Below, piece by piece: positions 5,714-61,624 of a stretch of DNA of 64,000 bases. The stretch spans positions 1,116,001 through 1,180,000 of the forward strand of contig OZ237744.1 in the NCBI GenBank assembly GCA_965178125.1. Direction: 5' to 3'. A program made the translations under genes and the position numbers. The first letter of the stretch is position 1, and every line of letters begins with the position of its first letter. The stretch is from Bilabrum cf. latius. Lineage: Eukaryota. The notes below the pieces were generated by a model, which saw nothing but the letters and a program-made list of their open reading frames with translations, was not told the origin of the DNA and ran no database searches.

Positions 5714-8700
5714 TCAACAAGAACTGTCCCCAGCAACCGCCGGGGCCGAGCTAGTACGCAGGCCGCCACCACCCTGCCCCCCCCCTGCCTGTGCCGCTGC
5801 CGCTACCGCAGCCGCCTGGGCCTGGGCATGCTCGTCTGCCTCCTGCTGGGCCTAATGTGCCTCCAAGCGAGCCCGAGCCTCTGCCAGGGCATGCGCATGG
5901 GCGTGTGCCCTCGCAAACTCGTACCTCTGGTGCGCCAGCTGCTCGTACTCGCCCGCGTCTAAGTCATCATGATCCTCGGGGACGTACCGCAGGCCGTACG
6001 CCGCGGCAGCGTACTCATCCACGTCCTCAGGGTGCAACGCATGGTGGTGGTGCAACGGGTGGTGGCCCCCCGCCACGGAGGCTACCGCAGCCGCGTACTC
6101 CGGGGGGTACAGCCTATCAAAATCATCCTCCTCCTCGTCCTCCTCCTCGTCCTCTTCGTGCACCCCAGCGACACCTCCGTCCCACCCCGGCACAACGTTA
6201 CCTTCCCCTCCCGCCCCATCCATGTGCCGTCCCCTGCCCCCATCCCCCGCTCGCGCAATGGCAGCCACTTCCTGCTCCTCCCTGTATTTTCGGTAGGCCT
6301 GCCTCGACCCGCCCTCGCTACCGCCGCCCGCGCCCCCCCCCCTGCTGCCCTCATGCCGCATCGAAGAGGCGCCTTCCCTGCCGCGGCTGCCCTCTGCCAC
6401 AGCGCCGTGACCGCCTTCCTCCTCCTCCCCGTCCTCATCTCCAGCTTGCCCTCCATCCCCATCCGCATCCCCATGCTCAATCAGCCCGCGCTCCTTGAGC
6501 ACCATCAGAGCGTCCGCGTATGCCCTCCTCAGCTTGCCCAGCTTGGACCGAGCGGCATAGGCCACCGAAGACTGGTCCTCCGCTCGTCGACGCGCCTCGG
6601 CTGCCTGCCTCTCCAGAGCGCCCGCTCGCTCCCGCCATGCGCCGGCCTCCGCCTCGGCGGCCCCCAGGGCCCCCCGCAGCCGCAGGCAGGCACCCACGAG
6701 CGCCGGCCGCGACAGGTCCTTAGGACTCGCTGCGGGGCGCGCCCCCTCCCCCTCCATGCCGCCGAAGGAAGCATCCCCCGCGCTGTGCACCCCCATGGAG
6801 AGGGGCTGCAGCTGACCATCCACGCCTCCACCTCCTGGTGTCTTGCGCTCCTCCGACCCGAGCCCCCCCGCAGAGCCGGGGGGCGTGCTCGCCGCCGAGT
6901 CACCCCCCTTGCTCTCCACGAGGTGTGACGAGTGCAGCCTAGGGGCCTCCCCTAGCCGCCTGCTTCGGTCCCTATCCATGGCCGCGGCCTCCTCCTGCTG
7001 CGCCCGCCGAAGCAGGGCGGCTGCCACTGCGTCTGCGGCGGCGGTGGCGACGGTCCTGTCCGCCGGCTTGTTGCCCTTGCCTCCCTGTGGCCTGCCCGCG
7101 TGCATGCCCTGGGCCCGCAAGGAACCCGCCAGTGCGCCGGCCACCGAGGTCTTGCGAGCGAATGCAAGCGCTCGGTTGCCCGCCGGAGCACTTGCTCCGT
7201 GCTCGCTTTCCTCCTGCCGCATCCCCCGCTCCAGCGCCTGCAGCAGCAACCCGCCGCCCTCCCCACCCCTGCCAGCGTGTTCCCCAGCGCTCCCCTACTG
7301 AACCAGCTCCACCGCGGCTCTTGCCTCCTCCTCGCAGCCCCTGGCAGCCTTGAGGAGCAGGAACTCGAGCGGCCCGCAGAGCCCCGCCACCGCGCGCACC
7401 AGGTCCACGTGCGCGCCCAGTCGGCGGCCCGCTGCCTCCATCTGAAGGGAGGAGCGGCTCGGGAGCGGCGGGGACGACTCAACGACGCCTGTGCCTTGCG
7501 GAACCACTCCGCTGCGCGGTGCCGCGCTCTCCTTCCGGGTTTGCCTCGCCGCCGCGGCCCGCCTGGCCAGTGCGGCCTGGGATGCTTGGGCTGCCTTGGC
7601 TGCCCGCTCGAGCGCTGCCACCTCCAGGAGCGAGGCGGTCTCGCTGCGCCGAGCAGCTGCTTCCTCCAGTGACGTCAGTGCTCGCACGAGCTGAGCAGCT
7701 GCTCGAGATCCGGCCCCCCCGCCCGCTCCCGAGCTGCCCACCACCGACCCGCCCAGCATGCTGAACGTACTGCCCTTCCCACCGCCTGCACCCGCGGTTC
7801 CACGCAGCAGGGCAGCCCCAGGGGCTAGCATGCTGCCGGGCCCCCCACCCGACGTGTCCAGGGCCCCAGAGAGCGAGTCCAGAGCGCCTGCGGTGCCGGG
7901 CCCCGCGCTGCGCCCGCCCACGCCACCAAGCTTGGAGCGCCGGAGGGAGGGCGGTAAGGATAGAGCTCCCTTGGCTCCGCCCTTGCTGCCATGCTTGCTA
8001 CCACCCCCGCTACCACCCCCGCCGCCGCTGCCTGCGTGCTTATGCCGGCTCACGTGAGAGCTCGCGTGGCCCTGGCCATGCCCGTGACTGCTCGTCCCGC
8101 CAAACGTTGCGGGAGCCTCGGCGGTAGATGAAGTACCAGCGATTGTAAACACGCTATCTTCGTTTGCTCTGCCATGCGCACCTTTGCGTCTGCGCGTCGG
8201 CCCGGCGGCGTGGTGCTTGGCGGCACCCGCATCCGTCGTCGACGCGCTCGCTTGGTCAAGCCATGCGGATGGCGCACCCCCAAGCGAGGATGGCAAGTTT
8301 GAAAGTGCGCTTTGCTAGTCGAGTCCGCGCGAAGGAGTAGAGACTTCGCTGCTCGGTGTTTGCTCTTGCTATCCCTTCCTTCGCCCAGCGATTGGTGTCG
8401 TCATGATGGTGTCCTTGCCCTCCAGTAGCTTGCTAACCAAACTTCCGTTAGTGGACAGAAGCTACGACTCATCATTACTGTGCGGACTTTGAGATCTAGC
8501 TCTCAAGGAAACCGTGGAGTGCTGTGTGCTGGCAGTTCCCGAGTGCGCAACGGATTGCCGTCCAGCAGTTTCTCCTGTTGCGCCTGCGCCCCTTTCAGCA
8601 GCAGTCTCTCTTTTTCGGCTCATCAGTAAAGTTGCATCAAAACTTTCTGATATGGGCTCATTGAGCGACCTTCGCGCCCTCCTGCGTCGATCCGGCTGCC

Positions 8701-8836
8701 GAGACGCCCCATCGGGAAGTATCGGGGACTGCAGGATATCTGAGCCTATTGCAACGGTATGCAGGCCAGAAACTGGGCGACGGCCGCGCTGTACACGTCT
8801 GTACTATGTCAAAGCTTGTGATTGTGGCGTGTTCAT
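5714..8836 (-). CDS. Hypothetical low-complexity/coiled-coil protein (~1040 aa with TAG=Gln)
   Basis: ORFs 8804-9010, 7295-8296 and 5852-7249 share one frame, broken only by TAG at 8804, 8462, 8369, 8315, 7295 and 5852. Ends TGA 5714. Context LEAH*AQQEADEHAQAQ. Start may be 8836 or 9010. Confidence 0.7.
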
Positions 8837-9013
8837 ACCAAGTACTTCAATGCTGCGATCAATATCTGCAGTAAAGTATCGGATCACGTGTCCGTTCGCA
8901 CAATACCGGATTTGCCCGTGTTTCGCACGCAACCGCTCTTCGGCCTCACGAACCAGGTTACCAAAACGGGTCGCGCTGGCCGCTTTTCTGTGCAATAACA
9001 TAGCAACCATCTC

Positions 9014-10005
9014 TCACTGCCTCCCCCTTTCAGAATCCGCTGGCGCCCCATCGCTGCCTGTCCTGTCTCCTGCGTGAGCTTCACCCGAGTGCTCCTGCTG
9101 CTCCTGCTGCTGCTGCTGCCCGCCGTCGACACCGTGCGTCTCTCCAGCTCCTGCTGCAGTGGATCCGCTGCTAGCTTGGGTCTTCGTGATCCCAACTGCT
9201 GCTGCTAGAGTCCCCAGCTGATCCTAGGCATAACCCCACCAGCCCTGTGCGCCTGTCTGTGTCCGTGCGCTGCCGCTGGACCCTGCAGGGGCTGCGGAAC
9301 TTCTTGAGGCATCGGTGGTGCTGTTAGGGTGCATCGTCCCATGCTATGCGATCGTTTGCTACGCTGAGCTGGCTGCGTCGCGGGGGTGATCTGCCGGGGC
9401 CCACCAAGACTACTAGGGAGATGCAGCTTCCGTATCTCTGGAATCGATCGCCGTCGGTAGAACAGGCGGCAATCCCAGAGCCTTGTCTATGCGATCCAAC
9501 CTGGCTAAAATTAGCTCATTGCGCTCCTCAAGAGCTTCGAAGCGCAGATTTCGGACTTTCTCCTTGTACTTTCTTCTCGTTTCCTTTGCCTCCTTGGCAT
9601 TCGCTGAGGCGATCTGGCTCCTGGTGTATTCGAATGACATGACAGCGACAGCTACAGAGAAGATGAACATCTCTGATATAAGGTCTGCTCCTTGTTGAAC
9701 AGCCGCTGATTCGGACAGATTCTTAATGCTCCGTGGTTCATGCCCAAGAAGCCGTACTTCCATTGTGATCATGAGCCTGTTTGTGGCGTTTCCAAAGCCA
9801 ACGCACATTGCCTTAAATCTTTCATGTGCTGCAGTTGGGGCGAGGGCTGCATTGAATCCGGCAGTTCTTTGCCATCGCAAGCGAGCATTTACGTTCGACT
9901 TGCTCAGCACTCACATTTTGCGTAGTCCTTGATCTATTTTGCAATGGGTTTCGCCAGCGTGCGAACAAGCAACGAACCTAGCTTCAGTAGCGGTATTTGT
10001 GCCAT
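9014..10005 (-). CDS. OPA3: OPA3-like protein with a long low-complexity C-terminal extension
   Basis: MAQIPLLKLGSLLVRTLAKPIAK*IKDYAK and LSESAAVQQGADLISEMFIFSV match OPA3. Intron 9829-9914. TAG at 9934, 9413, 9410, 9359, 9344 and 9224; first non-TAG stop is TGA 9014. Confidence 0.88.
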
Positions 10006-10282
10006 GGCCTCGCCTGCATCTGTTTTTCTGAGAGCTTTGTTGCAGTGGGGCCGGGTCAAGGCAGACGGGTGACGAGTGATTGCCCACCACACCACAAACC
10101 TGCCAGCAGTGCCACTTTGGTTGCACACATGCTTGCTGCGAGTTGCGCTGTAGCTTCGGGTGGTAAGTGCAGTGCTCGTGTGCGACCTGTGAATAACATT
10201 CGTGCCATACAGTCAATGCAACACAAGCCTAGCCACTTGATGTGGCACCCACCATACCCAGGCGCTCTCCGCCCACTGGCAG

Positions 10283-13200
10283 TCAGCCCGTGCTCATGCT
10301 GCCAAGCACGCGCTGCACCTCGCGCCGATTCACTGGCTTGCACAGTACCTCGTTCGCCCCGCTTGCAATGAAAGCCTCCTGGTCCTCCGGCAGTGCATTC
10401 CCGGTCACTCCCACGATAGTGACTCGGTTGATCAGCGGACTGGGGTCATGCCGCACAGCAGAAGCCATATCGGGTCCGGACAGTCGGGGCATGGAAAAGT
10501 CCAGCAGCACCAGATCCACAGCCCGCCCTTGCGCTCGCCCTCTGCTTGCATTTTGGTGCTCCCCCAGTGCCCTTGCTTGTTCCCTGAGGATTCGAAGCCC
10601 CTCTAGTCCATCGGATGCAGCCAACACCACAGCGTTGCAGTCGATCGACCTGACCATGCGTGATAAAAACAGCCTGTTGGTGCGGCTGTCATCAACCACC
10701 AGCACGGTTGCTCCCTTGCTAAGGTTTTCGCAGGCTGCATTCAATGTTTCTGACTCCTGTGGCAGCCCATGGACTGGCGCGGCAACCCCATCCGAGATTC
10801 CCACGGTCTGCTGCGAGACAGACCCTGCACCTGATCCATTTACTTCCGTCACTAGCTCTTCTGATACTACTGCAGCGGTAGCAAGACTACCCACACGATC
10901 TGCCACCGCTTCAAAGCTGCCTTCCATGTTCAAGTTCCCGCTGGCGCTGGCGCTCCCCTCCCCCGTCCTGCTGCTGCCCTCGTCTTGTGCCTCGGAGATG
11001 GCATCCAGCCCTCCCCCGGGGCTATCCCAGGCTACCAATACGTTCTGGTGCGCGCGTCGCTTGGCTTCTATCCCATCTCCATGCTTCCATTGCCCCTGCT
11101 CAGGCATTGAGGAGTCTAGCGCAAGACCTGTGTGTGATGACTCAAGCCCAGCGCTGGAGGAGGCAGCCGAGGCGCTTCGTGAGCTCGCTTGAGCTGGCCT
11201 TCCAGCATGGCCGATCGTCGAGTCCATCTCAAACCAGACGAAGAAGACACTGCCCTCGCCAACACGAGACGAGAAGCCGGCACAGGCATCGTGCATCCGC
11301 ATCACAGCAGCCGTGATGGCAAGCCCCAGACCAGACCCCTAACCTTCAGCGGTGAGGATGCCCGAGTGCAGCGTCTCGAAGGGAGTGAAGACCTTGCTCC
11401 AGTCCTTGCGCTGGATGCCTGGTCCCTCGTCAAGCACCCACAGACACACACCTACTTTGCCAGAGGACTATGCACCTTGTGGAAATGACGCAGACCCGTG
11501 CACTAGCGATGGAGTTGCACCCTCGTGCGCGCCTCGATCTCCGTTCGCGGGTGCGTCAACTCCTCCCGCTTCCCTATTTGAACCCCTGTGCTATATGCCG
11601 CCAGACACCTCACTTTTCTTGTCGCTCCCCTTGAAGTCGCCCTGGAGTCGAAGCCACAGCTCGTCATACTGCGACACCGTGTCTGGGGCTATCTGCGCAA
11701 GGGTCGCACACTGCTGAATGTGGTGGCTGCCGCGAGTTGTCGAAGTGTCCTAGCTACCGGCTGCAGCCACGAGAGATGCTTTCGAGATTACCCCTTCCCC
11801 CTTGGAGCCGGTGGTATCTTCATTCGGCTGCGCGTGCATGGCGACAGCGCCACCGGTACCGAGCCAGGGCGCGGTCCCCCGTCTCAGAGCACCCTGTGCC
11901 AAGCTGGCTTCGAGCGCCGCGGGGTCATTGGCCGACTTGCTTGCGCCAATTGGACTCCTTGGAGCGCTATTGCTGCTTCCTGCACTAATTGCAAAGCTGT
12001 GTGTACTAGCCACGGACTGCAAGGATGAGGATGCTCGGCGAGGCCTGGAGCCTGCAGTCCTGACATCCGCAATTCCTTCCGGGGCGACTCTGGCCCGACT
12101 TGTTCGCTCGGTTGCACCCAAAGTGCTGCTACTACGGCTGTCGCTGTCTCTTTGCTAGTGAGAAGCAGCAGGATAAGCCTCCGACACGATGCGGTGCAGA
12201 AGTGCGGTGGTGACAGGGCCAAGGGAGCGAGCTGCGGCCTTCCAGTCGTCCCTAGTCCACAGGTGGGGCGGGTTTGTGCTGGCCCCGAGCACAACTACCG
12301 GGCCGCTCCGCCGCCCCTCATCTGAATGGATTTCCTGTTTGCGCGGTGCCCCCGCGTTCATGAGCCTTGTGACCAGCTTTTCGTCTGGTCGGGACCACTT
12401 GAGCGCATTCGAGGCAAAGTTGTTCAGCGCGCCACGAACCCTGGTGGGGTCGCAGGTGAGCGTCCAGTCCTGTCCGACGCAAGGATGCGTGCAACGGACA
12501 AGAAGACGAACGCCCATGCCTTCCGCCTGCGACGCGAACGTGCGCTGAGTATCGCCAAGCACAGTCGGCAGCAGCTGCACTGGCCTCCTGACTATCTTTA
12601 GTCTACCGGACTCGATGTGCTGTAGGTCGAGCACATCGTTGAGCGTGGTCTGCATGGCCTCTGTGGCTGCCTCGAGCGAGGGCAGCGTGTCGTCGAAGAG
12701 ACCCACAGCCTCCTGTAGCAAGGCCTCGGTCTGGTCGGGACCTTCCTCGCTGCCGTGCGGCCCGCCGCTCCTAACTTGGTCCCTCCCCCTCACTCTTCGA
12801 CGAGACGTGGTTCTTCGTAGTCTTGATGCTTGGTAGGCAGACAGGGCCTACCGAACTCCACTGGCACCCTCCTGGCAGAAATCTAGACCCAGCACTACCG
12901 AGTTGAGAGGCACCCTGCACTCGTGCGACAGGAACCGGACCCTCGACTGCAGCGCAGCTTTCTGCTTTTCGGACACGTCCACTGCCTGATCCAGCTCCTT
13001 GGACTGCTGCGCGTACAGGTACACGCAGGCAAGGAGCACGGCCCTGAGCGCCACGTGCGCAAGCCGCACCAAGAGGTCAGTGGACACGTTGCGACGCACA
13101 ACTTCGGTCGCGTCCGTTGATAGCAGAGCCCTCAATGGGCGACTACCCCATTCCGAGGGGCACCGGCCCCAGTGGTTGGGCAGCCCGGCGATGCGCACGT

Positions 13201-15343
13201 AGGCACAAGCGCATATTCTCGTCGCGTCAAAGAGCACGTCCTCCTAGAGCTGCTGCGGCACGAGCATCTCGAGAAACATGAGCACGGCGAGGACCTTGAG
13301 AGCAGCCCCCAGGCTGGCCGACCGATCCATGCCGGCCTGCACTAGCGGAGACACAACACGGTGCACTACTCTGGTGCCCCTGTGCTAGAAGGCCCGCATC
13401 TCCATAAAGTGCTGGGTCTCGGACACGCCGGTGCCCTGCCCTAAGCACGACAGCGCGCCCAAGCCGACGATGGCAACCTCGTGGACGCATGCGGTGCCTC
13501 GAATTGTATCCGAATCCATCACGACGCGAGGTGCGGTTGCGACACTATGATGCAGCCCTCGCAACCTGCGACGTTTGACTGGTATCGCGGGGGTCATGCA
13601 GCTGGGCACGGCACCGCAGCAACACGGCCGCACGCAGGCCGTCACGCACGCAAGCTCCGCGTCGAGTACACTGCATCTAGATTGTTCCCTCACACCCCTT
13701 TGCTTGGCTCTGACCCACGCTGTCGACTGATGGGCAGCATCCTAAGTTGTCTCGTCCATGCCCCTACTCGGAGTCATCGCAATGAGCAATAGGGAGAGCG
13801 CCATGCACGGCAGCCACACCAGCACTGACACGCTGAACAGCCCAAGGGCGCCAAGGCTGCCGGGGTCTGTCGGCAAGGAGAAAATGGGAGTCGATCTTCC
13901 TCCGAATCGATCGAGCTCGTTCAGTGTTGAATAAGTGGACGGCCAAGACAACGGGAAGGACCCGTTGGCTGGGATTCGCAAGGGGAGGACACCCGCCCTG
14001 CTGGCTGCAGGGATGGCCTCGAGCAGTTCCACGGCGTACATGGCCGCACTCACTTCTGCCTGCGTGGCATATGACATGCACCATGACAGTCGCGGGCTGC
14101 TGGAAATCCTGTTGTGCAACGCGGACAGGCTGCATGCTGGCTCCATCGCCCGCCCGGGCGAGCACGCCGAGCTGCTGTCTCGCGTGCCCACCTCCTGCAA
14201 CAACCGTGCTTCTGCCGCCCTCACGCGGTCTGCTCCAGCAAGCATGCGCTCTGGCACAGCCAACGTGCCCGCTTCCCCCACAGCAGTGGGAGGAGGAGCC
14301 ACAGCCTCAATCTGACCCAGGATGCTCGCCTGCTGCAGCAGAGACAGGAACAGCACCGGTTTGTCGTTGTATCCCCGCACATCTGTGAGGAGAGATACGG
14401 AGTCACCTACATCGCTCGCATTCCTCGCTTCCTCCAGCAGACCCCGCAGCCGTTCCACCTGCCCCAGCCCGTGCTCAGCAACGGCACCAGATGAAGCCAG
14501 GCGCGACACTCCCAGGGCGGAAGAGCCCACCGTGTACATCAATCCGCCGAGCCCAGCGAGGAGGAGCATCCAGAAGACCCTGACCCGCTTCAGACGGAAC
14601 TCAACCTCTGGCCGAGCGGCAGACGTCGCACCGATGATCAGCGACACGACGAGAGCGAGAGATGATGCGGCCGCGGTGATCCAGACGCGCGCCAGGGCGC
14701 CCAGCTGCGAATCGTCTCCACTAGCTACATCCCCAACTGTGACAGCCTCTCCTGATAGCATGGACGAGATCCCGTGGCCCATGACAACTAAGTTGCCTTG
14801 AATAGAGCTCTGGTACACAAGGAGCGGACCCTGGCCGAACAAGCCACCCTCTGTAGTTGACGGAACGTACCGCGAAAGGCTCTCGCAAAGGACCGCGATC
14901 GCCAGAAGCCACATGAGAATTGATACGAGGGCGTGCCTGCCCCATCGCTTGTACGAAAAGCAATTCATCGGGTAACCCGCGCCGCACCACTCCAGCAGCA
15001 ATACAGTGGAGCTGTACAGTGCGGCGAGAAGGCCGTGTAGTACAACTACGACTGATCCGACCCCTACTGCGGATTGACCAATCTTAACGGCTTCATCCAA
15101 GGGGTAGGTCGGGATGGTAGCATCTTCAGGCTGTTGCACTGGAACTGCGAATTCCGTTTCAAAGCCCAAGTTCCACCTCCAGACCGATGCAGACCCCAGC
15201 ATGAATGCTGCGATTTCCATCCCAACAGTAACCACAATAATAGGGCCTGCTGTCGCTATAAGCAACCAACCAGAATAAGAGCAAATAGCCTCGTACGCCA
15301 TCACAGTTTGGGCTGACGACCTCTGCACTGCAGGCGGGAGCAT
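10283..15343 (-). CDS. Membrane-bound hybrid histidine kinase (TM sensor region + HisKA + HATPase + receiver), ~1690 aa
   Basis: One frame with TAG at 13742, 13385, 13244, 12848, 12155, 11750, 11591, 11468 and 11339 and no TAA/TGA until 10283. Motifs: H-box FLSHECRVPLN, N-box LNNFASNALKWS, G1 DEGPGI, F-box VFTPF, G2 G*GSGLGLAI, REC VLVVDD..LLDFSMP..VTGN..KP. Several hydrophobic segments lie N-terminally. Confidence 0.9.
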
Positions 15344-15564
15344 GCTGACTCAAAGCTTGTTCCACCGGAGCGAGTTCACGAACACCATTTGAGCACCCTG
15401 CAGAGTACGTATCGTATGACGTGCAGCACTACGGTGACCTGCAGCGGGACGACAAGCTGCTTCTTGTCTTCATCATCTGAGTGGTCGCAAGCTCAGAGTC
15501 CGCATATTAACGCGGGCACGGTCGCAACTTTATCACATTTCGTGGCATGAACGATAGATTTCTG

Positions 15565-29484: not shown

Positions 29485-29561
29485 GATGTGAAAGAGCCCG
29501 GCAAAGTGAGGTGACGCGTCGCGGTTGGAAAATGCACGTAACCGTACTACCGGTAGCGAGC

Positions 29562-43951: not shown

Positions 43952-44140
43952 GCTGCCCACTCGCGGGCAGCTAGATGTTGCTTACAGGTGGGGATTCGCC
44001 GTTCGTCTCGCCCCCGTGTTCGCGCTATCAAAATGCACCTTACAAAAATATCAACGAACGCTGCGCGGGGGACAGAGATTAAACAACAGTCAGTGCTGTT
44101 CTCTAAAGCAGGGACGACACGCTTCACATTCAACAGATTT

Positions 44141-47100: not shown

Positions 47101-49377
47101 ATCCCGGCCCATCCGAGCCCCAGCCACCCCCCGACTCGCTCCTCTGCTCACCAACCCACGACTGCTCTGCGTCGTACTCCCAACCCTGATCCGCTTCCCC
47201 GGCATCGGCCTCCAGCTTTCCCTCAGCCTGCCACGCGGGCACATCCTTGCCGCCCATCGCAGCAGCCCGCCCCACGGCCCCCGACGACATGAGCCCCCTC
47301 CGTCCCATCGAGCTGCCCAGCTTCCCGCGGATGCTCCCAGTCGCACCGTCGGACCCGGAATCAGAACCATCGGCACCCAGGAGCGCCGCGCGGGCCTCTG
47401 CAGCGTACACCAGCGAGGAGCGACGCTTCCGCCTCCTCCCCCTACCCATTCTGTGATTCCCTGACGCCGCTGAGCCCCCGTTGGCCCCGATAGTACCCCG
47501 GACCGAGCGCCCGTCAAGGGAAGTGACCCCACCATGGGGACCCCCCTCCTGGGTCTGACCCAGCGCCGAATGCGGTGGTGTCGGGGGCCTGTCCGCCACC
47601 CTCTCGCCCTCCAGGCTGTAGCCTTCCTGTCCATGGGGAACATCGGCAACTGCGTCGGACTCGGGGTGTTCCAAGCTCGACCCAGGGCTGTAGTGCGCGC
47701 GTGCATGGGCCTGGGATTGTTCCTAGAGGGCCCTTGCCTCTGCTGTCTCGAGGGGATCCACGGAGCCTGATCCCAGCGAGCCCAAGCTCCCGCGCTGCAT
47801 GCCAGTTGGCACCCTCGCGTGCCCATCGCCCCGTCCTTGACCAACCCACGGCCCACCAGCAGCAGCACCAGACGAAGCGCCCAGGTCGGTGTCCACTGAG
47901 GGCTCCAGGAGCGTGCTGCCGCCCAGCAGGAGAGCGCCATGGGCACTGGTGGCATGAAGCGGTTTTCCCGGAGCACCTGCTTGGGCTGAAATCGACCCCC
48001 CGGGGGACCGGGGAGGCTCTGGGTGCGCGAGGGGCAATCCCCCCCGAACCGTGTGATAGCTGTCCCATGCACCGGCCTCGGTGGATGGCTGCAGCGCAGC
48101 ACGAGCCGACGACGGCGGGATCAGCCGGCCCTACTGCTCCTCCTCAAGGTGATCTTCTTCGTCCTGCTCACGCTGCTTCTAGTCGACGTCCACGCGCAAC
48201 TCGATGCTGCCACCGGCACCCCGCGGGGTCAAGCTGTCCTGCCCGAGGTCCATGCTCCTGATAGACGCACCCCGCCCGTGACCAAGAGCAGCAGACTAGA
48301 TCTAGATCTAGCCGCCCGGCAGCGATCCCTCTCCCCCCGAAAAAACTCCTTCTCCCGAACCGCCTGTCCCCACTGTAGCCATCGAGGCCCCGCCCGCGGC
48401 AAGCAGCATCCCGAGGCTGCCCCCGCCCTCGCTGCCCAGCGGCAGCACCGCCTACCCGCCCGGCCCCACACCCATAGCGCCCGGCCCGCGGGCAAACGCC
48501 TCCCGCGCGGCTCGCCTGGACCTCCGGATCGCGGCCTTGGCATGGGCTGCGTTCCTCTCCGCGAGGATCCGGAGCCAGCGCTGCAGGTACCACCTCGAGT
48601 CTAGGCAGGCGGGCAGGCGGGCGGTGGCCGTCGTGGTGCAATAGATGGCGACGTACTGCGCGCCTCTGAAGAAGGCTCGCGGGTCGATGGGACCTCGCTT
48701 CGTGGAGAGATACTTCGGCCTCCACACTGCCAGGCGCACGGCATCCGTGAGCATGTATGGGAAGCGCAGGCCCTGCGGGTCCGAGGCGATCTCCTCGATC
48801 CCGCGGCGGCACACCACGGCGCCGTTTGGGGCCAGCACCACAGCCCCGTAATGAGGATTCACCTGCTCATGGAAATAAAAGGTACAGTGCGATGCTTTTG
48901 GCACTTGAAATTGAATAGCCGCGTCAAAGCGTGTTCCAGGATTCCTACGAGGCGACTCACACCAAACGTCTCGGCCAGCCGAGCCGGCACCGCAGAGCCC
49001 AGGGCCGTGCTCGGCCAGGACATCTTTCGCCTCCACTCGGCATACATGCCTGCCTCAGTCTTAGGATCGTTTGCCGACAGCCACACTACTTGCAACGCCA
49101 GCCGCCTCGCGTTCATTGCATGCCACTCGACCATGTGCTGGGTCATTTGCTGCTGCTCCCCAAGCCTACGCCGAGCATGATCGTTCCAGTACAACACTAC
49201 CCATCTACCGAGCAGCGCATCGCTGTCTGGGGAGCACAACGAACCGTCTGGCCACTCCAGGTTTTCCCGAAACAGATTGAACAGCTGCCGTCTTTGGTGC
49301 AGTTGCTGAGGTGTCATTTGGTGGCCATATCCGTGTTCTGCCGCCCCAACGGACCGATTGGTGTACTGTGATAACAT
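44141..49377 (-). CDS. Nucleoredoxin/thioredoxin-like protein without a recognisable CxxC, with a very large low-complexity insertion
   Basis: LLGRWVVLYW..QVVWLS..MSW..VVLAPNG..DPQGLRFPY and LPRLILLDSGG..EDPEGFPW resemble nucleoredoxin Trx domains. Intron 48863-48960. Twelve in-frame TAGs. Ends TAA 44141. Confidence 0.72.
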
Positions 49378-51152: not shown

Positions 51153-52679
51153 ATGGAGCAGATCAAGGCGTCCATAGCAGCGCTGCAAGAGTCGGCGCGT
51201 ATTTTAGAGGCAATCGCCGGACACGACTTGATCACACTCGTTGAGCATACAGAGTTTGGCAGCGAAATGCTGAGTCAGTCCTAGGCAATCAAAGCGAAGA
51301 CTATAGAGTTTTAGGCTGTGGTAGAAGCATCTGCTGCCGCTAAATCGCTGGAATCCGCCGTCCCACCAGAGTTGCCATCAAAAGGAGCAGCAGCCGCCGC
51401 ACCAGCCCCGGAGCCGGCCGCTGCACCAGCACCGGAGTCGGCCGCTGCACCAGCACCGGAGCCGGCCGCTGCACCAGCACCGGAGCCGGCCGCTGCACCA
51501 GCCCCGGAGCCGGCCGCTGCACCAGCCCCGGAGCCCGCCGCTGCACCAGCACCGGAGCCGGCCGCTGCACCAGCCCCGGAGCCGGCCGCTGCACCAGCCC
51601 CGGAGCCGGCCGCTGCACCAGCCCCGGAGCCCGCCGCTGCACCAGCCCCGGAGCCCGCCGCTGCACCAGCACCAGAGCCGGCACCAGCAGCCGGCAAGAA
51701 GGCCGGACATGGCTGGGACGCCACATCCGATGAGGCGTACGACAGGCTTGGGTACGGCCAGTACCACGCGGGCAAGAAGAAGACCAAGCCAGGTGCGAGC
51801 AGCGAGCTGATAGGGGTGGCCATGCGCATCGCGCACAACGTGGAGGGGCTGGGCAGCGCGGGAGACAGGGACGTGGCGGCAAAGGGGGGCAGCGAGGGCC
51901 GGGGGGCGGGCGGCAACGGCGACGACTCGAGCGAGGGGGGCTGGGGGGAAGACTCGGACGATGAGGGGGCCGCGAGGGTGGGCGCGCGAGGGGCGGCCAT
52001 GCCTGCTTTCCAGAGGCGCCGGCCCAAGGCAGACACGGGTGGCGTGCCGGCAGAGGAGCATGTGCCCAAGTTCATCCGAGAGAAGAAGGAGAAAGAGGCG
52101 CAGGCGGGGGCGAGGGAGGGGGGCAAAGGAGGAGGGGATTCCACGGCTGCAGCGGCCCCTGCCCCCGCCCCTGCCCCCACCACGGGGGCATCCCCCGCCA
52201 GCAGCGGGGGCGGCCCCGCCGCCTCGGGCATCTCCCCTACGATCACTCTATCGTCCAAGGCCAGCGCGGCCTTTTAGTCGGTGCGTCAGAGGAAGCGGTC
52301 CTGGGCCCTGTTGAAGCCCGACTCCAAGTCCATGTCCGTCAAGCAGGGCAAGCTGGGCAAACTGACCGAGGACGCGACCCCCGAGCAGTTCCTCAAGCAG
52401 CTCCCCTTCATGCAGTGCAGGTACGCCGTCTACGACTGGAGGAGGACCATGCCGGACGGGCGGAGGAACGAGACCATGTACCTCATCGCCTGGGCGCCCC
52501 CCGCCGCCAATTCCGCGGACAAGACGTTCATGGCCTCGCAGACCACGGTGGTGGAGCGCATGTTCGAGGGGGTGGTGACAGTGCAGGCCAGCTCCGCGCT
52601 GGACGTGCGCAAGGCGCTCGGCATCGGGGCTGCACCCGCCGCGGCTGATTCCGACTCGGACAGCGACTTCAGCGACTGA
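51153..52679 (+). CDS. ADF/cofilin-domain protein with a long N-terminal PAAAPAPE repeat extension
   Basis: C-terminal QCRYAVYD..MYLIAWAP..ADKTFMAS..VQAS (ADF-H). TAG at 51282, 51312 and 52275 (AAF*SVRQRK). Ends TGA. Confidence 0.85.
51396..51686. repeat. 24-bp coding tandem repeat (~12 copies, PAAAPAPE)
   Basis: The gctgcaccagc(a/c)ccggagcc(g/c)gcc unit is directly visible. Confidence 0.95.
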
Positions 52680-52938: not shown

Positions 52939-55269
52939 TCACGCGCTCTTTGACCTCCACCGACTCGGCAGCATCGCGTCGACGACTGTCTTGGTGAGCC
53001 TTCCCACGGTGCCTGGGGCAGTCTCCCTGGCCCGAAGCAGCACTGCCAGCGACACCCCGAACACCGTCACCCACAGGCCCGGCATGCTGCGGGCAACTTT
53101 GTGATCGAACATGATGTCGCGCAGCACCTCGATGGCCCGGGGAACAGTGTACAGCAGCAGCTCGGCCCGCCGCTCCGCGCCCTCCATCCAGGTGGTCAAA
53201 CTGGCGAGCCCTCCCGCTACCCCGTACACCGCCTTGTGGTCCCAGGGAACAAGCCGCCGCTGCAGGTCGATGAGCGCCATGTAGGACGCCACGAACGTGG
53301 CGATGTACACGGTCGACTGCAGCGCCGCGCGGGCAGCCTTCCCGAGGCTGCCCCAGGGGTCTGCCAGCGCGCGGCGGAGGCGGAAGGCTAGCGGAACCAG
53401 GGACAGCGTGGCGTACACGGGCCCCGCCTGTCGGAACGCCTTGATCCAGGTGGCCACGGCCTGTGCCGTTGGGTCGGCCTCGTGGGGGTGGAGGACGCTG
53501 GCTGGGATGCGGCGAGGGCGGGTGGTGGCCATCGGGTACGGGCCACGAGGCCACTTCTGTTCTCCCAGCACCCCGCCCTGACCCCGGGCTCTGACAATGC
53601 CCCCGTCCCTGTCCCTGTCCCTGTCCCTGTTCTTGTTCCCTGCGGCCCTGGCCAGCCTCTCCCGGATGGCCCTGGCGATGTGGGCGTGCCCGCTCCTGGG
53701 AGGCCCGTCCCAGCGACACCCGTCCAGCACGGTGCCCCAGAGGTGCCTGGCCCACCGCACCCACGTCCAGTGGCGGGAGCCCGGGGGCCCCTCGCTCGTC
53801 CTGGTGACCCGCTGCGGCCCGCACTACACGTCAGGGAATCTCGGCTCCGCCTCCCTCACGTACTCGTTGAGGGCGTGAGGGTCGATGTCCAGGCCCCTCG
53901 TGTGCCGCGCGATGGCCTCCATGGGCGCCCTGTCAATGGGCTGCACCTGCATCATGAACCGGCGGAGACCGCCCTGCAGGGCGCCGGGCCGCAGCACGAA
54001 CGCGTGCATGATGAGGGACGTGGACGCAGCCAGCAGCAGCGTCTCACCGGTGGACTCGATCCAGTGAGGCGGGCGCGCCCCTCCCTTTCCCCGTCCTCCT
54101 CGCGCTGACACTGCGGCTGCCCTGCCTGTCCCCCCAGCACTGCCTGTTCCCCCAGCAATGCCTGTTCCCCCAGCAATGCCGCCTGCATCTGTGCTGCTCG
54201 TGCTGAGGCCACTCCCGCCATCATCCTTGCTTCTAGCCTCACCGCCCTATAGCATTTCTTTCCCGCCCTCAGCTCCACTATGCTCTGGTTTAACGCCAGT
54301 GCCCCCAGTGTTGCTGCCGGCAGCCACTTGGACCTCCCCCCCACAGCCCTCCAACGGCTTCACGCCGATGCCTCGCAGCCAACCGGCCTCCCTTGCCATG
54401 CGCCAGCCCGTCTGCGCCGCCCTGGCCCCCGCGTACAGAGCGAACGTTCGCCGAGTGTCCCTGTCCAGGACCAGGAGTGGCAGTGCAGAGAGGACAGCGG
54501 CAGCTGCATCTGCCGCGGCCAGGGCAGTAGCGGCGCCCACCTCACTGGCAGGCTCAGTCTCGTTGCTGATGCCAGTGAGGGTGCCTGGGGAAGTATGGGT
54601 AGGAAGAGGCACAGGGGTATCGACGCTCGGTGAGTGACGGTCTTCCTCGCCGCGAGGATGCGCCCCCGCGCCACCGGATGCAGGGGCCGTGCTGCTGCTG
54701 CGCCGGGCGGGCGAGGCCGGCCTCGGGGGCGTGATGATTCCCGACTGGCTGCCCGAGGACCTGGCGGGGAACGATGATTCTGGCAATACAACGGGCGACA
54801 TGGGGATGGCTGGTGCGACGGTCCCCTCCTCCAGCGGGAGGGACTCGGCAGTGGCCAGCGATCCGTCCGAGTCCACGTGCGTGCACCCGCGGGCCCCGAC
54901 GGGCATCTCCTCGGCTGCCTCGGTCTGCTGCGGAGGAGGAAGCGAGCTTGTTGCGTACAGGCGGTTCACTACGAACCTTAGAAATCCTCTTAAAAAGTCG
55001 TACAAGCCGGTACACCCGGCAACGAAAAGGGCGAGCTTGACCGCAGCTACTCTGTATGACAGCCCCTCCTTCTCGGACACAAGCGCCCTTAGCGATAGGA
55101 GTTTAGCAGGTCGTGATCGCAGCAGTCGAATTGCATGCAGCAACAGGCCGATGCCGGCCCGAACATTGAACACGAACAGGAATCTATCTGCGAAGGTCCT
55201 AGATCCTCGCACCAGCTCCCGCCAGAGGGCGACGTACACGTTTCGCCGCGAATGTCGCTAGTTGTTCAT
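52939..55269 (-). CDS. TMEM135-like membrane protein
   Basis: RRTFALY..ARA, IMHAFVLRPGAL, VYATLSLVP and E..RRAELLLYTVPRAIE. TAG at 55258, 54247 and 53824. Ends TGA. Start inferred. Confidence 0.8.
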
Positions 55270-55416
55270 GATTTTTGAATACCTTGGCAAGAAATTTTGG
55301 TCAGGATTGTCTGGGGCGCCCTGATCCGGTGCATTCGAAAAAATAGGTTACAACCGGTGGCGCCGAGCAGGATCGCGCCATGCAGGAACGCACTTTTTAT
55401 CCGTCGACGAGAGGAT

Positions 55417-58404
55417 ATGGCAGCAGTCGACCGATCAGCGATTATTGCTGGTGCATGTAGCGATCTGAGAAACGCGACGCAGGGCGATAAGGTGTACAAG
55501 AACGAGTGCGTGTACTCGTTTGCTACTCCAGCCACGCCGGGCGGAATATACGTGAATCTGCGCACGTTCGTGGCTGTTGGTCCAGAATACCTGCAGCTAG
55601 AGTTAAACAAGACCTCAGAAGAAGGCAAGCACAACGTCTACTGGAAGCAGGTGTGGACCCGAAGGCCGGCGCCGAAGGCCCGCGAGGAGGACGGGCAGCC
55701 GGCCAAGAAGCTTTCAAAGGTTGCGATCGGCGTGGAAGGCGGCGCACCGCTCGACGAAGAGCCAGAATACGACAAGCACGAATACCTGTCGCTGGTTAAG
55801 TCCGGCGAGCCGGAGATGTGCATCGCTTTGCCGTCCGATGACGTCCCGGCAGCTGTCACGGCGGTCATCGATTCCGTCAAGAACCACGACGACGTGGTCC
55901 GCGCCGCTCAGGTCAAGCAAGCTGCAGTCGCTTGGGTGAGAGAGAGAACCGGAGGGCAGAGACCCCGGTCGCCGCGCTCTGGAGCTGCGCGGTGCGCACG
56001 CAGTCGCTGTACCATGGCCGCACATGCCATACCTTGAGTGCAGAGCACCTCGTTTGAGCCCCTTTCAATCCAACTCCATCCTCTGCAGGAGTTTGTTCCC
56101 CAGGCATCTGCATTCGCCATGGACCTCCCCGTGGTGGAGCACCCTCCCAAGCTGAGCGCGGACCCTAGCACCTGGAAGTGCTTCGCCTGCGATCTCACCT
56201 CCAACCTGTGGCTCAACCTGTCCACGGGGGTCATGGCCTGCGGCAGGCAGCAGATGGGAGGGGCCAAGGGACACGGACATGCCCTCAGGCACTTCGAGGA
56301 GACGGGCAGCCGGTATCCCCTCTGCGTGAAGCTGGGCACTGTCACGGCGGACTCCGCCGACGTGTACTCGTACCACCCAGATGAGAACGACCTGGTGCTG
56401 AACTCCAAGCTCGACGAGCATCTTGCCCGCTTCGGGCTGGACCGCAGCTCGATGGTCAAGACGGACAAGTCGATGGACGAGCTGCAGCTGGACGCGCAGG
56501 AGAAGCTGGAGTCCAACCGCATCACCGAGGCGGGCAAGAAGCTCATGCCCGTCCCGGGGGCGGGGTTCGTGGGCCTCAAGAACATGGGGAACAGTTGCTA
56601 CATGGCCAGCGCGGTGCAGTGCCTCGCCGCCATGCCCGAGTTCGCCGAGCGTTACCTCGCCCCCCACGACGAGGTGCTCCGGGCCGTCCACCCGAGGGCC
56701 GTGGCGAGCGACCTGACCGCACAGACGTGCAAGCTGGCAAGGGCACTCATCACGGACAAGTACGTCCCCGAGGACAAGAGGGAGCTCCCGCCCGCGCCCA
56801 GCGGAGACGTCTCTGAAGAGGTCCTGGAGGCGTACGCGAAGGCGCTCGCGGAGAGGACAGAGGCGGTGTTTGTGGAGCCGCGCATGTTCCGGTTCGTGGC
56901 GGGGGCAGGGCACCCGGACTTTGGGGGCACGCAGCAGCAGGACGTGTCCATGTACATGACGCATCTGTTCGAGCAGTTCGCGCTCGCAGAGGCAAAGGGG
57001 CGCCCGGGGAAGGCGGTCGCGGACAGGTTCGGCGGGCACCTGGGCCGGCTGTTCGCGTTCGACACGCAGGACAAGATCAAGTGCCTTGAGAGCGGTACCT
57101 ACCGCCTGAAGGACGGCGAGGACACGATGTTCTCCCTTGGAATCCCCATGGACAAGGCCACCAACAGGGAGGAGTACGACGCCTACATGGCGAGGGAGGC
57201 CGCTAGGAAGGCGCAGAGGGAGGCAAGGAAGTAGGCCAAGGCAGAGGCGGAGGCAAAGGCAAGGGCGGGGGTGGCTGCTGCCATGGCCGGGAAAGGGGAC
57301 GGAGAGAAGGAGAAGGAGAAGGAAAAGGAGGGCGGGGGCAAGCAGGAGGAGGAGGCCGCTTCGGCTTCGAGCGGGGCTGGCGCGGGCGCTTCCACCACAG
57401 CCAGCTCGACTCCTGGTTCTACCTCGACCGCCGATGCTCCCCTCGATAAAGAGGAGGAGCAGGTGCTCGCTAAGGTGCCCTGGTCCGCTGTGATGGAGGC
57501 GTGGGCAGCTGGGTCCGTTGTACCCGACCTGCATTCCAACGCCACCGGCAAGAAGGGCCCCCACCTGAAGACACCCGCCCTCAAGACCATGCCGCCCTAC
57601 CTGCTGGTGCAGCTCCGCAGGTACAGCGTTGGCCCCGACTACCAGCCGATCAAGCTCGGCGTGTCCCTGGACGTGCCCCAGGAGCTGGACATGGAGAAGT
57701 ACAGGGCCAAGCCGCTTGGAGGGGACGAGCCAGCTATGCCTGAAGGTGACGGGGGCGGGGACGCGGCGGGAGGGGGTGCGGGGGAACAGGAGGTGTCCCC
57801 GGAGATCCTGGCCGCGGTGACGGGGATGGGCTTCACAGAGAACGCGGCCAAGCGGGCGGCCAAGGCGACGGGCAACGGCCCCGCGGATGCCGCGGTGAAC
57901 TGGCTCATGGAGCACATGGGAGACCCTGACATCAACGACCCCATGCCTGCCTCGGGTGCGGGTTCGGGTGCCGGTGCCGGTGCGGGAGGGGGGGATGGGG
58001 TGGACGAGAGCAAGGTGCAGATGCTTCAGGCCATGGGGTTCGATGCCGCGGTGTGCCGCAAGGCGCTGCACGAGAGCAAGGGGGACGCCGAGCGGGCGTC
58101 CATGTGGATCATGGAGCGGATGGAGGACATCGCGGCGGGTACGGTGGACCTGACGATCCCCAAGGCCGTGGAGGTGAGCAAGGACAAGAGCGACGGGCCG
58201 GGCAAGTACAGGCTGATGGCCTTCATCTCTCACATAGGGAGGAGCACAACCGCGGGGCACTACGTGTGCCACGTGAAGAAGGGGCCGGGGGGCGCGTGGG
58301 TGGTGTACAACGACAGGAAGGTCGCGCTCTCGGAGGAGCCTCCGTTCGGGGAGGGCTTCTTGTACTTCTACCAGAGGGTGGACCGGGCTGAGGGTGGCAA
58401 GTGA
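55417..58404 (+). CDS. USP5: Ubiquitin C-terminal hydrolase USP5/UBP14
   Basis: VYKNECVYSF, zf-UBP (NLWLNLSTG..HALRHF..VKLGT..DVYSY), GLKNMGNSCY, QQD, two UBA domains and GHYVCH. Intron 55936-56088. TAG at 57232. Ends TGA. Confidence 0.95.
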
Positions 58405-58529
58405 TCGCTGGAGTGTCACACGGTCCATCAGAGCGGACATGGATCTGCCCAGAGTTCGTAGCGAACCCCGATGAACGAACCTGCCTTTCTGGCCCAGCTT
58501 CTAGTAACATCAAGTGCTCCAGCATCGCG

Positions 58530-60948
58530 ATGGAGAGCAGCGTGATGGAGCGTATGCGGCGCTTACAGAACGAAGTTGATTAGCTTGAAATAATTCTGGA
58601 GAGCGCGTTGGAAGATGTGCCGGTATTTGTGAGAATCTACCCCGTATCCAGCTCGTCCTGTCTTATTGCGAGATTGATATGCACTCCTTTGGACGCACGC
58701 ACTACCTTTTTGCCTCAACCGCAGCCGAAAGGAAGAGTTGAGACTGAACACATGATCTGCAATGCCGTTGCTGCGGTGCAGAAGCGAAGTTAGCTGCTGC
58801 TCGCACTGGATGCAGATGCAGACAGGTGAGGTGCCTCGACAGTATCGACACAAGTTTACTTCGGCTTGCAAAGCGCTGATGCGCACCATGGCTGTAGTAG
58901 CAGTTCCGCTTGAAACCTTTCGCAGGCAAAAGCAGGCAGAAATTCAAGGGTGGCGGCCGCAGGCAGGCGATCCCGTGGATGTGCTGTTTGATAGGCTCGA
59001 TGAGCTGTTGGATGAGGGCGAGCAGGAAAGCAAGCAATCGTACGGCCTTCAAGATGCATCCACAGAGTCATAGAGTGCTTTGTTTGAGGAGATCAAGCCG
59101 AAGGTTTCGTTCTCCGACGAGGAGTGCTGGGGGCGCTTCGTCGACATGAACGAGCCCTTCGAGCTGTACCGCAACATCCCAGGCGCGCCTCAGACAGATT
59201 ACACGGAATTTCTTAAGCGCGGGCCGGTTGCACCGCCCGAAATGGTTGACGTGTCTGGCAGCGCGGATCCGCAGGAGAGCGGGACAGCCCACTCGGCGGC
59301 TCCCTCGTCCTCGTCCTCGTCCTCATCGTCCTCGGCCTCGTCCTCCAGCGCCGCGGCTGCATTTGCGAGCATGGCCAGTGGGAACAGCGGCAGGCGCATG
59401 CGGCCTCGAGAGCGGGAAGAATCCGAACGGCTCCGGGACGCGTCCTACCGGGCCTATCTCCGGTCGTGCACCGGGTACCTTGCTCGCTTCGCCCGCCGTG
59501 CTCGCCCGCTGGAGCCGCTCGAGCAGGTGCTTGAGCCAGCCTACAGGGACTTCTGTCGAGCCGCTGGCCTGTCCTCAGCTGGCCCTGGCACAGGATAGCA
59601 ACCGATGGAAGGCCCCGAGGGTGGCAGCGGGGAGGCGGCGCGAGCCCGGACCCAGGGCGGACCGGGAGCGGGAGGCGAGGAGGAGCATCGACAGCCGTCG
59701 TCTGGGATCGATCTAGGCAGTGTGACGAGTGCGGAGGAGCTGCTGGAGCGGCACGACGGAGAGGCTCTCCGCAACGAGCTGCTGCGGCTGGGGCTCAAGA
59801 CCGGGGGCAGGCCGCAGGACCGTGCCAAGCGGCTGTGGAAAACAAAGGGCAAGTCGCCCGAGGAATGGCCCAGGGGCCTGTGGGCCAAGGGGAGGGGGCC
59901 TAAGGACGGACAGGCGGGAAGTGGGGGGCACGGGGGGCCTGGGACAGCCGGCATGACCGATGTGGAGGCAGCAGCGGAAGCTGCACTTCGGACAGGCGGC
60001 AGGCGCCAGGCATTCGTAGGCGGAGCAACGGCTTCGTCCTCGTCCTCGTCCTCCGTATCGTAGGAGAAAGCGAGATCCCAGGGTGGAGCTTCTTTGACCA
60101 TCAGTAACGGCACTGGGAGCAGCGCAGCGGTGTCTGCCCTAGCACCAGCAGCATCAACAGCATCGACCGGCACTCTCCCATTCTCCGACCAGGTGCCCCG
60201 GGGGGGCGCCCTCGAGTCTCGCTGGCTAGAGCACGCCTTGAGGGCGCTCTGGGGAACACTGCAGCCGGTGATGGACGCCTCACGCACCCGGGCGGAGCGG
60301 CGGCAGACGCTGACGGAGGAGGAGCGGTAGAAGGAGATCGAGGAGGAGGCGGCGGCAGCGGTCGGGGAGGGGGAGGCTTACGGGATGGAGGGGGCCGCGG
60401 GCGGGGAGGGGGAGGACGGGGAGACGGACGCGGAGAGGAGGAAGAGGCTGGGGCGCAGGTACAAGAAGAACCTGGTGGTGGACGTGGACGGGAAGCCCAT
60501 CCCCTACTGGCTATACCGGCTGCACAACCTCAACATCCCGTTCAAGTGCGAGGTGTGCGGGGACGAGACGTACTGGGGCAGGTTCAGCTACGAGCGGCAT
60601 TTCTCATCCCCGAGGCACACTCAGATGCTGCAGCGGCTGGGCATCCCCAACACGAAGCACTTCTTTGGGATCAGCAAGATTGCAGATGCCATGCGGCTGT
60701 GGAAGCGGCTGCAGGCCCAGACCGGTGCGGGCGAGGGGACGGGGCCCGGGGCTGGGGTGGGCGGGTCTGCTTCTGGTTCTGGGCTCGGGGGTGTGGCGGC
60801 GGCAGTGGCTGCGTCGAGCGGCGGGCCGCAGGGCGCGCAGCATGCCGAGTTCGAGGACGCGGACGGGAACGTGATGAGCAGGGAGCTGTACGAGATGATG
60901 GCGAGGCAGGGGCTCCTAGGGCAGGGGGGCGGGCGCAACAGGAGATGA
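58530..60948 (+). CDS. SF3A3: Splicing factor 3A subunit 3 (Prp9)
   Basis: FSDEECWGRFVDM, LGLKTGG..RAKRLW, DGKPIPYWLYRLH, CEVCG..RHF..RH..LGIPNT, EFEDADGNV and RQGLL. Probably two 5' introns. TAG at 58581, 58791, 59071, 59596, 60061 and 60328. Ends TGA. Confidence 0.95.
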
Positions 60949-61060
60949 TGCGTGCAGATGATGCATCACTGGCATGACCTAACTAGTACTATAGCAACAT
61001 TCGAGTCAACAGCAGCTTCACACACTTTGGCACTTAGAGCGTGCTACCTGGCTTCGGCAG

Positions 61061-61624
61061 TCAGCGCGCTCCCGTCCTGGAGATTTCGCACATGGTGCCC
61101 TCCAGCACGTAGTATGATCCTGGATTGTATGGTGTTGTCACGATGCCCAAGCTGTACGTCATGGACACCAGGCACTGCGTCCTGCCGTTGCTCGTGATTA
61201 GCTGCCCTGCAGTCAACTCACCGTCCAGCGTTGCCGCGCAGATTCCGGTGTCAAACGTCGTCCCATTGGCCCATCGGATCGCGGATTTAGGAAATGGTTC
61301 GCTCGCTGATGACAGTTTCAGGACTGGGTCGTTCAGATACCGATACTCCAAAATTGAGAAGGCGCCCACAGCGGCGTACTACCCTGATCGATCAACTTGC
61401 GTTGCGTAGACACATAGCCACCCCTCAGTTGTATACACTAAATTGCCGGCTGCGCCTTGCACTCCGCAGTAGAACCTCTTCTGCGCGATCGAAGCGTTTA
61501 CCGGCAGCGGATCATCATATGGGTTCTTCGGAAACGCCGTGCTGGACGTCCGCAGCCATTCCCCGCAGCCGCGCCCAAGTCGAAGCAATGCTGCAATTGC
61601 AACTACAAAGCATGCAATCTTCAT
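61061..61624 (-). CDS. Small secreted hypothetical protein (187 aa)
   Basis: Signal-like MKIACFVVAIAALLRLG. ORFs 61379-61702 and 61061-61369 are joined in frame by TAG 61379. Ends TGA. Confidence 0.65.

Follow-up and report, generated by a model that had tools for sequence, protein, structure and literature searches.

UAG as a probable glutamine codon in the nuclear genes of a GC-rich, intron-bearing eukaryote

How is the codon UAG read in the genes of contig OZ237744.1, positions 1,116,001 to 1,180,000? This 64 kb stretch, which we call the window throughout and always at its full length, has a guanine plus cytosine (G+C) content of 64%. Its gene content is that of ordinary eukaryotic nuclear DNA, as judged from Pfam and PDB matches, with spliceosomal introns of 96 to 318 nucleotides (nt) and GT..AG ends seen in spliced contigs. 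The standard code breaks most of the genes into pieces; allowing TAG to be read through yields stop-to-stop frames of 730 to 1,847 codons that coincide with real eukaryotic genes. An earlier note, made from the letters alone, had proposed that UAG is a sense codon here while UAA and UGA remain stops, and had left the residue open. Our analysis points to nuclear DNA of a GC-rich, intron-bearing eukaryote, probably a stramenopile, in which UAG is read as glutamine and only UAA and UGA serve as stops, a reading to which we give a probability of about 0.86. We take this code to be NCBI table 15 (TAG = Gln; TAA and TGA stops).

In-frame TAG in the window and in a relative

Across 15 gene frames we counted 67 in-frame TAGs, a number that is an upper bound. 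The earlier note had put the total at about 70, in about 18 genes; the total was close and is likewise an upper bound. Its counts for single genes agree with ours: six TAGs in SF3A3 after splicing, nine in a hybrid histidine kinase, three each in an IGHMBP2/SMUBP-2-like helicase and a peptide deformylase, two in CDC23 and one in USP5. The fragments also rejoin across TAG in one frame, as the note had stated, with Pfam and PDB domains continuing from one side to the other.

In eight spans, homology to Pfam families, PDB entries or orthologues flanks the sequence at either end without a change of frame, so that stops within them can be counted independently of the definition of an open reading frame (ORF). 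Their 5,513 codons contain 21 TAGs and not a single TAA or TGA, in keeping with the earlier observation that neither interrupts an exon; read in the remaining five frames, the DNA of these spans gives 140 TAG, 35 TAA and 300 TGA. Without selection, 67 TAA and TGA codons would be expected in the bracketed spans (7 TAA and about 60 TGA), and the probability of finding none is about 8e-30. TAG density per codon is nearly equal in frame (0.0038) and out of frame (0.0051) and the other two triplets are absent in frame, from which it follows that selection acts against TAA and TGA as stops but spares TAG. The 21 bracketed TAGs, together with 8 more in the RNA-derived contigs described below, give direct support for 29 of the 67. 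A local codon-usage score, which was trained on highly biased conserved genes and is a poor judge of low-complexity genes, was clearly coding-like at 17 of 66 TAGs and weakly so at 29. ORF length alone is no proof of coding, since GC-rich codon bias also generates long antisense frames; one of 1,365 codons lies opposite the helicase (38854-42951, plus strand).

Most genes end in TGA, with TAA at 29562, 35913, 41893 and 44141, as had been noted before. TGA closes the RNR2, USP5, SF3A3 and Brr2 frames, and in SF3A3 it stands nine codons beyond the last human residue in the alignment.

A second, diverged organism shares the trait. The best database match of the helicase is a metagenome protein (P0004, 61% identity) that breaks off mid-domain, and its end is exactly the first TAG of the metagenome contig L001 (1-12494; 12.5 kb, 59% G+C). 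L001 is fully syntenic with 35.9-49 kb of the window (minus strand), at about 53-81% protein identity, and contains 22 in-frame TAGs: 11 in the helicase frame, which runs to 1,784 codons when TAG is read through, 9 in its neighbour and 2 in a third gene. The large low-complexity gene at 44141 aligns to L001 1-3264 over 974 residues, and the L001 orthologue of a gene with a PH-like domain and proline-rich repeats has two TAGs where the window has Q. In two orthologous pairs, this gene and the helicase, TAA stands at the identical end residue in window and L001. None of the 29 aligned TAG columns has TAG in both organisms, which shows that TAG codons turn over, and a trait common to the window organism and the diverged L001 implies that the change predates their split.

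The letters themselves were compared with public sequencing data. Fourteen public runs from nine studies contain part of the window, and contigs of four of them (X1, X5, X7 and X8), carrying four organism labels and coming from four studies, were compared over 41800-61700, where no differing letters were found between contigs and window. The contigs of X1 (DNA, share 1.00, and perhaps the source of the sequence) and an X8 DNA contig covering 57515-61700 match the window base for base. Six canonical intron joints absent from X1 are found in X5 and X7 (Table 1), and such joints indicate that the contigs bearing them derive from RNA; no run among the 14 is labelled as RNA, and the RNA origin of X5 and X7 is deduced from the spliced contigs. 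In spliced USP5 contigs (X7 record 17, X5 record 13) position 55934 is joined to 56088 and the sequence continues past TAG 57232 with no letter differences, and a spliced SF3A3 contig of X5 carries TAGs 59071 and 59596 unchanged in its piece 58923-59873. Two colinear X5 contigs (44115-47249 and 47294-48378) hold 12 of the 13 TAGs of the gene at 44141, again with no letter differences, and the 48858-48957 joint of this gene (CT..AC) is seen in a spliced contig. In all, 15 TAGs lie within RNA-derived contigs, three of them in demonstrably spliced ones. Because TAGs are unchanged in both DNA and spliced contigs, sequencing error, removal by splicing and editing, the doubts that the earlier note had raised, are excluded for the TAGs covered.

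On the sequences, UAA and UGA behave as terminators. The central claim of the earlier note, UAG as sense and UAA and UGA as stops, is thus borne out by the bracketed spans, the RNA-derived contigs, L001 and the shared TAA ends.

The residue at UAG and the competing readings

Alignment of the window with L001 gives the residues opposite TAG. With columns binned by the number of identical flanking residues out of 20, Q stands opposite TAG in 13 of 29 columns for any flanks, 12 of 24 for at least 8, 11 of 18 for at least 12 and 7 of 9 for at least 15, and the conservation of Gln itself in these bins is 0.46, 0.57, 0.62 and 0.71, respectively. When substitution counts from the same alignments are used, the log-likelihood of Q lies about 28 units above the next residues (Ser, Lys, Glu and His). 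Opposite TAG, the other organism has CAG nine times, CAA four times and 16 codons that occur once each. In the helicase, TAG 39255 falls on the Q of the QYRMH motif of human SMUBP-2 (alignment to PDB 4b3g), a column with Q in 120 of 120 homologues, mostly vertebrate. The column of TAG 38850 has D in 117 of 120 homologues and Q in L001, whose helicase orthologue has Q at both positions. In the PDB alignments of the deformylase, SF3A3 and the histidine kinase, TAGs fall at variable columns that are uninformative on the residue: those of the deformylase hold V/A and G/Y/A/M, and TAG 11339 of the histidine kinase is at a variable position before the GxGLGL box. TAG therefore evolves as a Gln codon that is exchanged mainly with CAG and CAA, and we read UAG as glutamine; its share among all Gln codons is about 10% for the window and about 17% for L001.

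Such a code could work as follows. A tRNA-Gln with anticodon CUA, one base from tRNA-Gln(CUG), would decode UAG; eRF1 would have mostly lost its grip on UAG and kept UAA and UGA; new TAG codons would arise by C-to-T change of CAG; and genes formerly ending in TAG would run on to a nearby back-up stop.

Several observations weigh against this reading of UAG. Scans of the window, L001 and L002 found no tRNA gene and no Rfam match, and eRF1 does not lie in the window. Twenty of the 66 scored TAGs lie outside the best-scoring frame, among them those of the OPA3 tail and of the 5′ part of the 5714-9013 frame. The run X5 bears the label ‘probably DNA’, and its unspliced contigs may be DNA. Seven of the 18 TAG columns with at least 12 identical flanking residues pair with other residues (R, R, S, S, A, L and T). 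TAG 29272, in a glucanase of family GH16, is opposite Ile in all four PDB laminarinase alignments shown; this is the one column that does not fit Gln, in a gene otherwise apparently intact, second exon included. Finally, TAGs pile up at frame ends, which leaves room for some termination at UAG.

This last point is the core of the alternative that survives best, in which UAG is context-dependent, encoding glutamine inside genes and acting as a terminator, fully or in part, near the 3′ end of the mRNA. In three frames the terminal stop is preceded by a TAG no more than two codons away (31806 in the deformylase, directly before TGA; 16986, one codon before TGA; 44147, one codon before TAA), where about 0.14 would be expected from TAG density. 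The L001 orthologue of the gene at 44141 has its TGA stop exactly at the place of TAG 44147. In the OPA3-like gene, TAG-TAG at 9410-9415 is followed by 130 open codons with three TAGs up to TGA 9014, and the codon score disfavours this tail. The contigs do not show mRNA ends. Were TAG terminating, however, the next in-frame stop would be at a random distance, whereas close back-up stops are the expected product of selection if TAG no longer terminates, being favoured because TAG is now read through. Internal TAGs are also frequent, up to 13 per gene, including one 6 nt from a gene end where the relative stops. In the ambiguous codes of Condylostoma, karyorelict and Blastocrithidia type the reassigned codon also ends genes, depending on position. 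Here each end-proximal TAG is followed by TAA or TGA, three of them immediately. We consider context dependence unlikely, and read the end-proximal TAGs as probable former TAG stops with adjacent back-up stops.

It is very improbable that UAA and UAG both encode glutamine (UAR = Gln, the code of the NCBI table 6 type) and that TAA is missing merely through GC-richness. A-ending codons are indeed rare, CAA making up 17% of CAA and CAG in the window, and UAR = Gln is by far the commoner variant (PMC5304391). The CAA:CAG ratio nevertheless predicts 10.6 in-frame TAA codons over 13,680 codons of the window, where there are none, in a test that is partly circular as the frames were cut at TAA. In the L001 frames aligned end to end with the window, 11.6 are expected and none is found (P about 9e-6), and in the bracketed spans none stands against the 7 expected from the other frames. 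TAA is absent in frame from window and L001 alike, and it closes the two orthologous gene pairs at the same residue.

That UAG encodes some other amino acid, for instance leucine, its meaning in the rhizarian exLh, or serine, which is reported for Scotinosphaera, is scarcely credible. Leu would be a better fit than Gln at the conserved Ile of the GH16 gene, and the comparison with L001 contains one TAG-Leu and four TAG-Ser pairs; yet Leu pairs in just 1 of 29 columns, the column of TAG 39255 is Q in all 120 homologues, and the log-likelihood favours Gln over Ser, Lys, Glu and His. That the TAGs are not coding, being artefacts of sequencing or assembly or lying in pseudogenes, in retained in-frame introns or at sites edited in RNA, has a negligible chance, even if about a third of the 67 are in low-complexity or weakly coding-like stretches and some may be in untranslated regions or introns, given that DNA and RNA-derived contigs under four labels and studies share the letters, spliced contigs keep the TAGs, L001 has TAGs of its own in the same genes, and neither TAA nor TGA occurs in those frames.

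Genes and other features of the window

The genes and frames are collected in Table 1. Four frames gave no match in a Pfam search: in that at 5714..9013 the codon score is coding-like at TAGs 7295 and 5852 only, in that at 16980..21002 at TAGs 19860 and 17685, and in that at 52939..55347 at 53824 only; it is weak in that at 25887..28547. The OPA3-like label, a putative one, is that of the earlier note. Five TAGs of the histidine kinase lie between HisKA and the receiver domain, and TAG 52275 is inside the Cofilin_ADF match. TAG 41451 is upstream of the helicase start and outside its coding sequence. The gene at 44141 has an intron at about 48859-48956 and extends further upstream.

Table 1 Genes, frames and splice joints of the window, with in-frame TAGs and final stops
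Feature	Position	Strand	In-frame TAGs and end	Basis
Brr2/SNRNP200, C-terminal half	1..3138	+	0 TAG; TGA end	Pfam Sec63, DEAD, wHTH
Low-complexity frame	5714..9013	-	6 TAGs: 8804, 8462, 8369, 8315, 7295, 5852	ORF alone
OPA3-like gene	9014..10212	-	9934 in exon 1; TAG-TAG 9410-9415; further TAGs 9359, 9344, 9224; TGA 9014	Translation and DNA
Hybrid histidine kinase	10283..15349	-	9 TAGs: 13742, 13385, 13244, 12848, 12155, 11750, 11591, 11468, 11339; TGA end	Pfam HisKA, HATPase_c, Response_reg in one frame
Frame without family	16980..21002	-	4 TAGs: 20778, 19860, 17685, 16986; TGA end	ORF
CDC23/APC8, several exons (predicted joins)	22626..25398	+	24738 in low-complexity insert; 1 TAG in last exon	Pfam ANAPC8, TPR
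Frame without family	25887..28547	-	6 TAGs: 28143, 27465, 27369, 26865, 26583, 26145	ORF
GH16 laminarinase-like glucanase, two exons	28548..29571	-	1 TAG: 29272-29274	PDB laminarinases; GEIDIME motif intact
Peptide deformylase	31803..32750	-	32490, 32172 between catalytic motifs; 31806 directly before TGA	81 PDB deformylases matched
Ribonucleotide reductase small subunit (RNR2), exon	33596..34486	+	0 TAG; TGA end	Pfam Ribonuc_red_sm, E 1.6e-100
IGHMBP2/SMUBP-2-like helicase	35913..41408	-	40191, 39255, 38850; TAA 35913-35915	Pfam AAA_11, AAA_12, SMUBP-2 1B
PH-like domain and proline-rich repeats, three exons	41893..43975	-	0 TAG; TAA 41893-41895	Spliced contigs X5, X7
Large low-complexity gene	44141..49054	-	13 TAGs: 48452, 48308, 48302, 48296, 48179, 48131, 47723, 46646, 46580, 46040, 45848, 45767, 44147; ends TAG-TAT-TAA	L001 alignment
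Cofilin/ADF-domain protein	51190..52679	+	51282, 51312, 52275; TGA end	Pfam Cofilin_ADF at frame residues 931-1046
Membrane-protein-like frame without family	52939..55347	-	3 TAGs: 55258, 54247, 53824	ORF
USP5-like deubiquitinase	55405..58404 (intron ~55935-56087)	+	57232-57234; TGA end	Pfam zf-UBP, UCH, 2x UBA
SF3A3 (Prp9), three exons	58500..60948 (introns ~58629-58724, 58823-58922)	+	58581, 58791, 59071, 59596, 60061, 60328; TGA end	Pfam SF3A3, SDE2_2C, SF3a60_Prp9_C; PDB 5z56, 5nrl
Pectinacetylesterase	61721-63118; second C-terminus copy 63477-63998 (-)	-		
Splice joints (CT..AC)	42831 to 42962; 43246 to 43565; 48858 to 48957	-		X5/X7 contigs
Splice joints (GT..AG)	55934 to 56088; 58628 to 58725; 58822 to 58923	+		X5/X7 contigs

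The C-terminal cassette of Brr2, which has no TAG over 1,045 codons, is unusually diverged: no long representative exceeds 43% identity, and the named full-length eukaryotes compared reach 33-35%. Between the histidine kinase and the next gene lies a hexanucleotide-type microsatellite (15700-16050) that in several frames of either strand would translate into runs of His-Gln or Leu-Ala/Leu-Val. Two in-frame tandem repeats were found within genes: a 63-nt unit present 2.9 times (42253-42438), which encodes the proline-rich repeats of the PH-domain gene, and an Ala-Pro-rich 24-nt unit present 12 times (51393-51682) in the cofilin-domain gene. The 3′ part of the pectinacetylesterase gene occurs twice, at 61701-62000 and 63454-63753, 1.75 kb apart and 99% identical, as a tandem gene duplicate whose second copy reaches the window end, and the two translated C-termini are identical.

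Placement of the organism and comparison with known codes

Two genes bear on the position of the organism. Among the best 120 matches of RNR2, nine are named eukaryotes and all are stramenopiles (oomycetes, Triparma, Pinguiococcus and diatoms) at 76-78% identity; the matches differ little in bit score, and Bacteroidota sequences of eukaryote-like type stand among them. Other relatives of this RNR2 reach 84-89% identity. For the C-terminal half of Brr2, the best named representative is the stramenopile Cantina (35%), near-tied with a chytrid, a heterolobosean and a red alga, with organism names available for five of the ten top clusters. A quick tree by maximum likelihood, with 38 rows and 37 of 270 homologues picked (named ones and the closest others), placed the query and two sequences as sister to Cantina and one sequence, with a Shimodaira-Hasegawa-like approximate likelihood ratio (SH-aLRT) support of 98, and outside the well-recovered fungal, animal, plant/green-algal and alveolate clades; it has long branches and samples a single named stramenopile. 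The IGHMBP2 homologue search was vertebrate-dominated and uninformative on taxonomy, a longer Brr2 search returned plants and fungi mixed with other groups, and a pectinacetylesterase look-up (Atlas) gave no useful taxa. On RNR2 and Brr2, a stramenopile position is likely, with a good deal of doubt remaining.

Identical DNA occurs in runs labelled as four organisms, with small shares also in ‘protist’ and ‘algae’ metagenomes. It may be that the organism is carried along as a companion when other species are cultured.

Ciliate genomes are AT-rich and have tiny introns. The window is GC-rich, with introns of the lengths given above and a Brr2 outside the alveolate clade, so the earlier judgement that it does not resemble a typical AT-rich ciliate stands. 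An aphelid origin was considered and rejected, on Brr2 falling outside the fungal/opisthokont clade and on base composition: Amoeboaphelidium genomes, which have annotated proteins in NCBI, are at about 40% GC (PMC10608142, Table 1) against 64% here.

UAG-only changes were first found in the rhizarian exLh (Leu) and in Iotanema spirale (Gln), with UAA kept as a stop (Panek et al. 2017, PMC5304391). Further cases are Scotinosphaera (Ser) and, among ciliates, Protocruzia tuzeti and phyllopharyngean lineages (Gln, Leu) (McGowan et al. 2024, PMC11687900). The closest in codon table is Iotanema, where UAG likewise encodes Gln, UAA terminates and the two meanings are decoupled; it is, however, an anaerobic fornicate (Metamonada) known from a transcriptome, whereas the window is at 64% GC with introns, carries mitochondrion-type genes (the peptide deformylase and, by the label of the earlier note, the OPA3-like gene) and groups with a stramenopile in the Brr2 tree. 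Protocruzia tuzeti and two phyllopharyngean lineages share the UAG-only change to glutamine and illustrate repeated independent origins of the same variant (PMC11687900), but differ from the window in the ciliate features already named. Amoeboaphelidium protococcarum is a non-ciliate in which TAG is also glutamine, but TAA is reported to be reassigned with it (UAR = Gln; PMC5304391, PMC6299283, PMC11687900) and the GC content is lower. In exLh and Scotinosphaera UAG alone is reassigned outside the ciliates, to Leu and Ser there and Gln here. Full-text literature searches, with supplements and most subscription journals outside their scope, found no stramenopile or GC-rich nuclear case. The code is thus of a known kind, and the lineage appears new for it. 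The undescribed independent origin suggested by the earlier note is plausible. We advance more tentatively, at slightly less than an even chance, that this would be the first stramenopile nuclear stop-codon reassignment: an independent UAG-only-to-Gln origin in a GC-rich, intron-bearing lineage with at least two deeply diverged members, in which former TAG stops are still visible next to back-up TAA or TGA. The aftermath of the switch would then be caught in a kind of genome opposite to that of the AT-rich ciliates, the usual home of such codes.

Standard-code gene callers cut such genes at every TAG, as the metagenome protein P0004 exemplifies, and annotation of these genomes needs TAG = Gln. 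In a GC-rich genome UAA, not UAG, is expected to be rare. A further UAG-to-Gln origin in a probable stramenopile, if true, would mean that this route is open well beyond AT-rich ciliates, and would bear on ideas that link stop-codon capture to base composition. Nuclear changes that separate UAG from UAA are few in the papers cited (Iotanema, a rhizarian, Scotinosphaera, Protocruzia and some phyllopharyngeans). With a second, diverged relative at hand, the order in which the suppressor tRNA, the eRF1 change and the replacement of TAG stops arose could be dated in this lineage.

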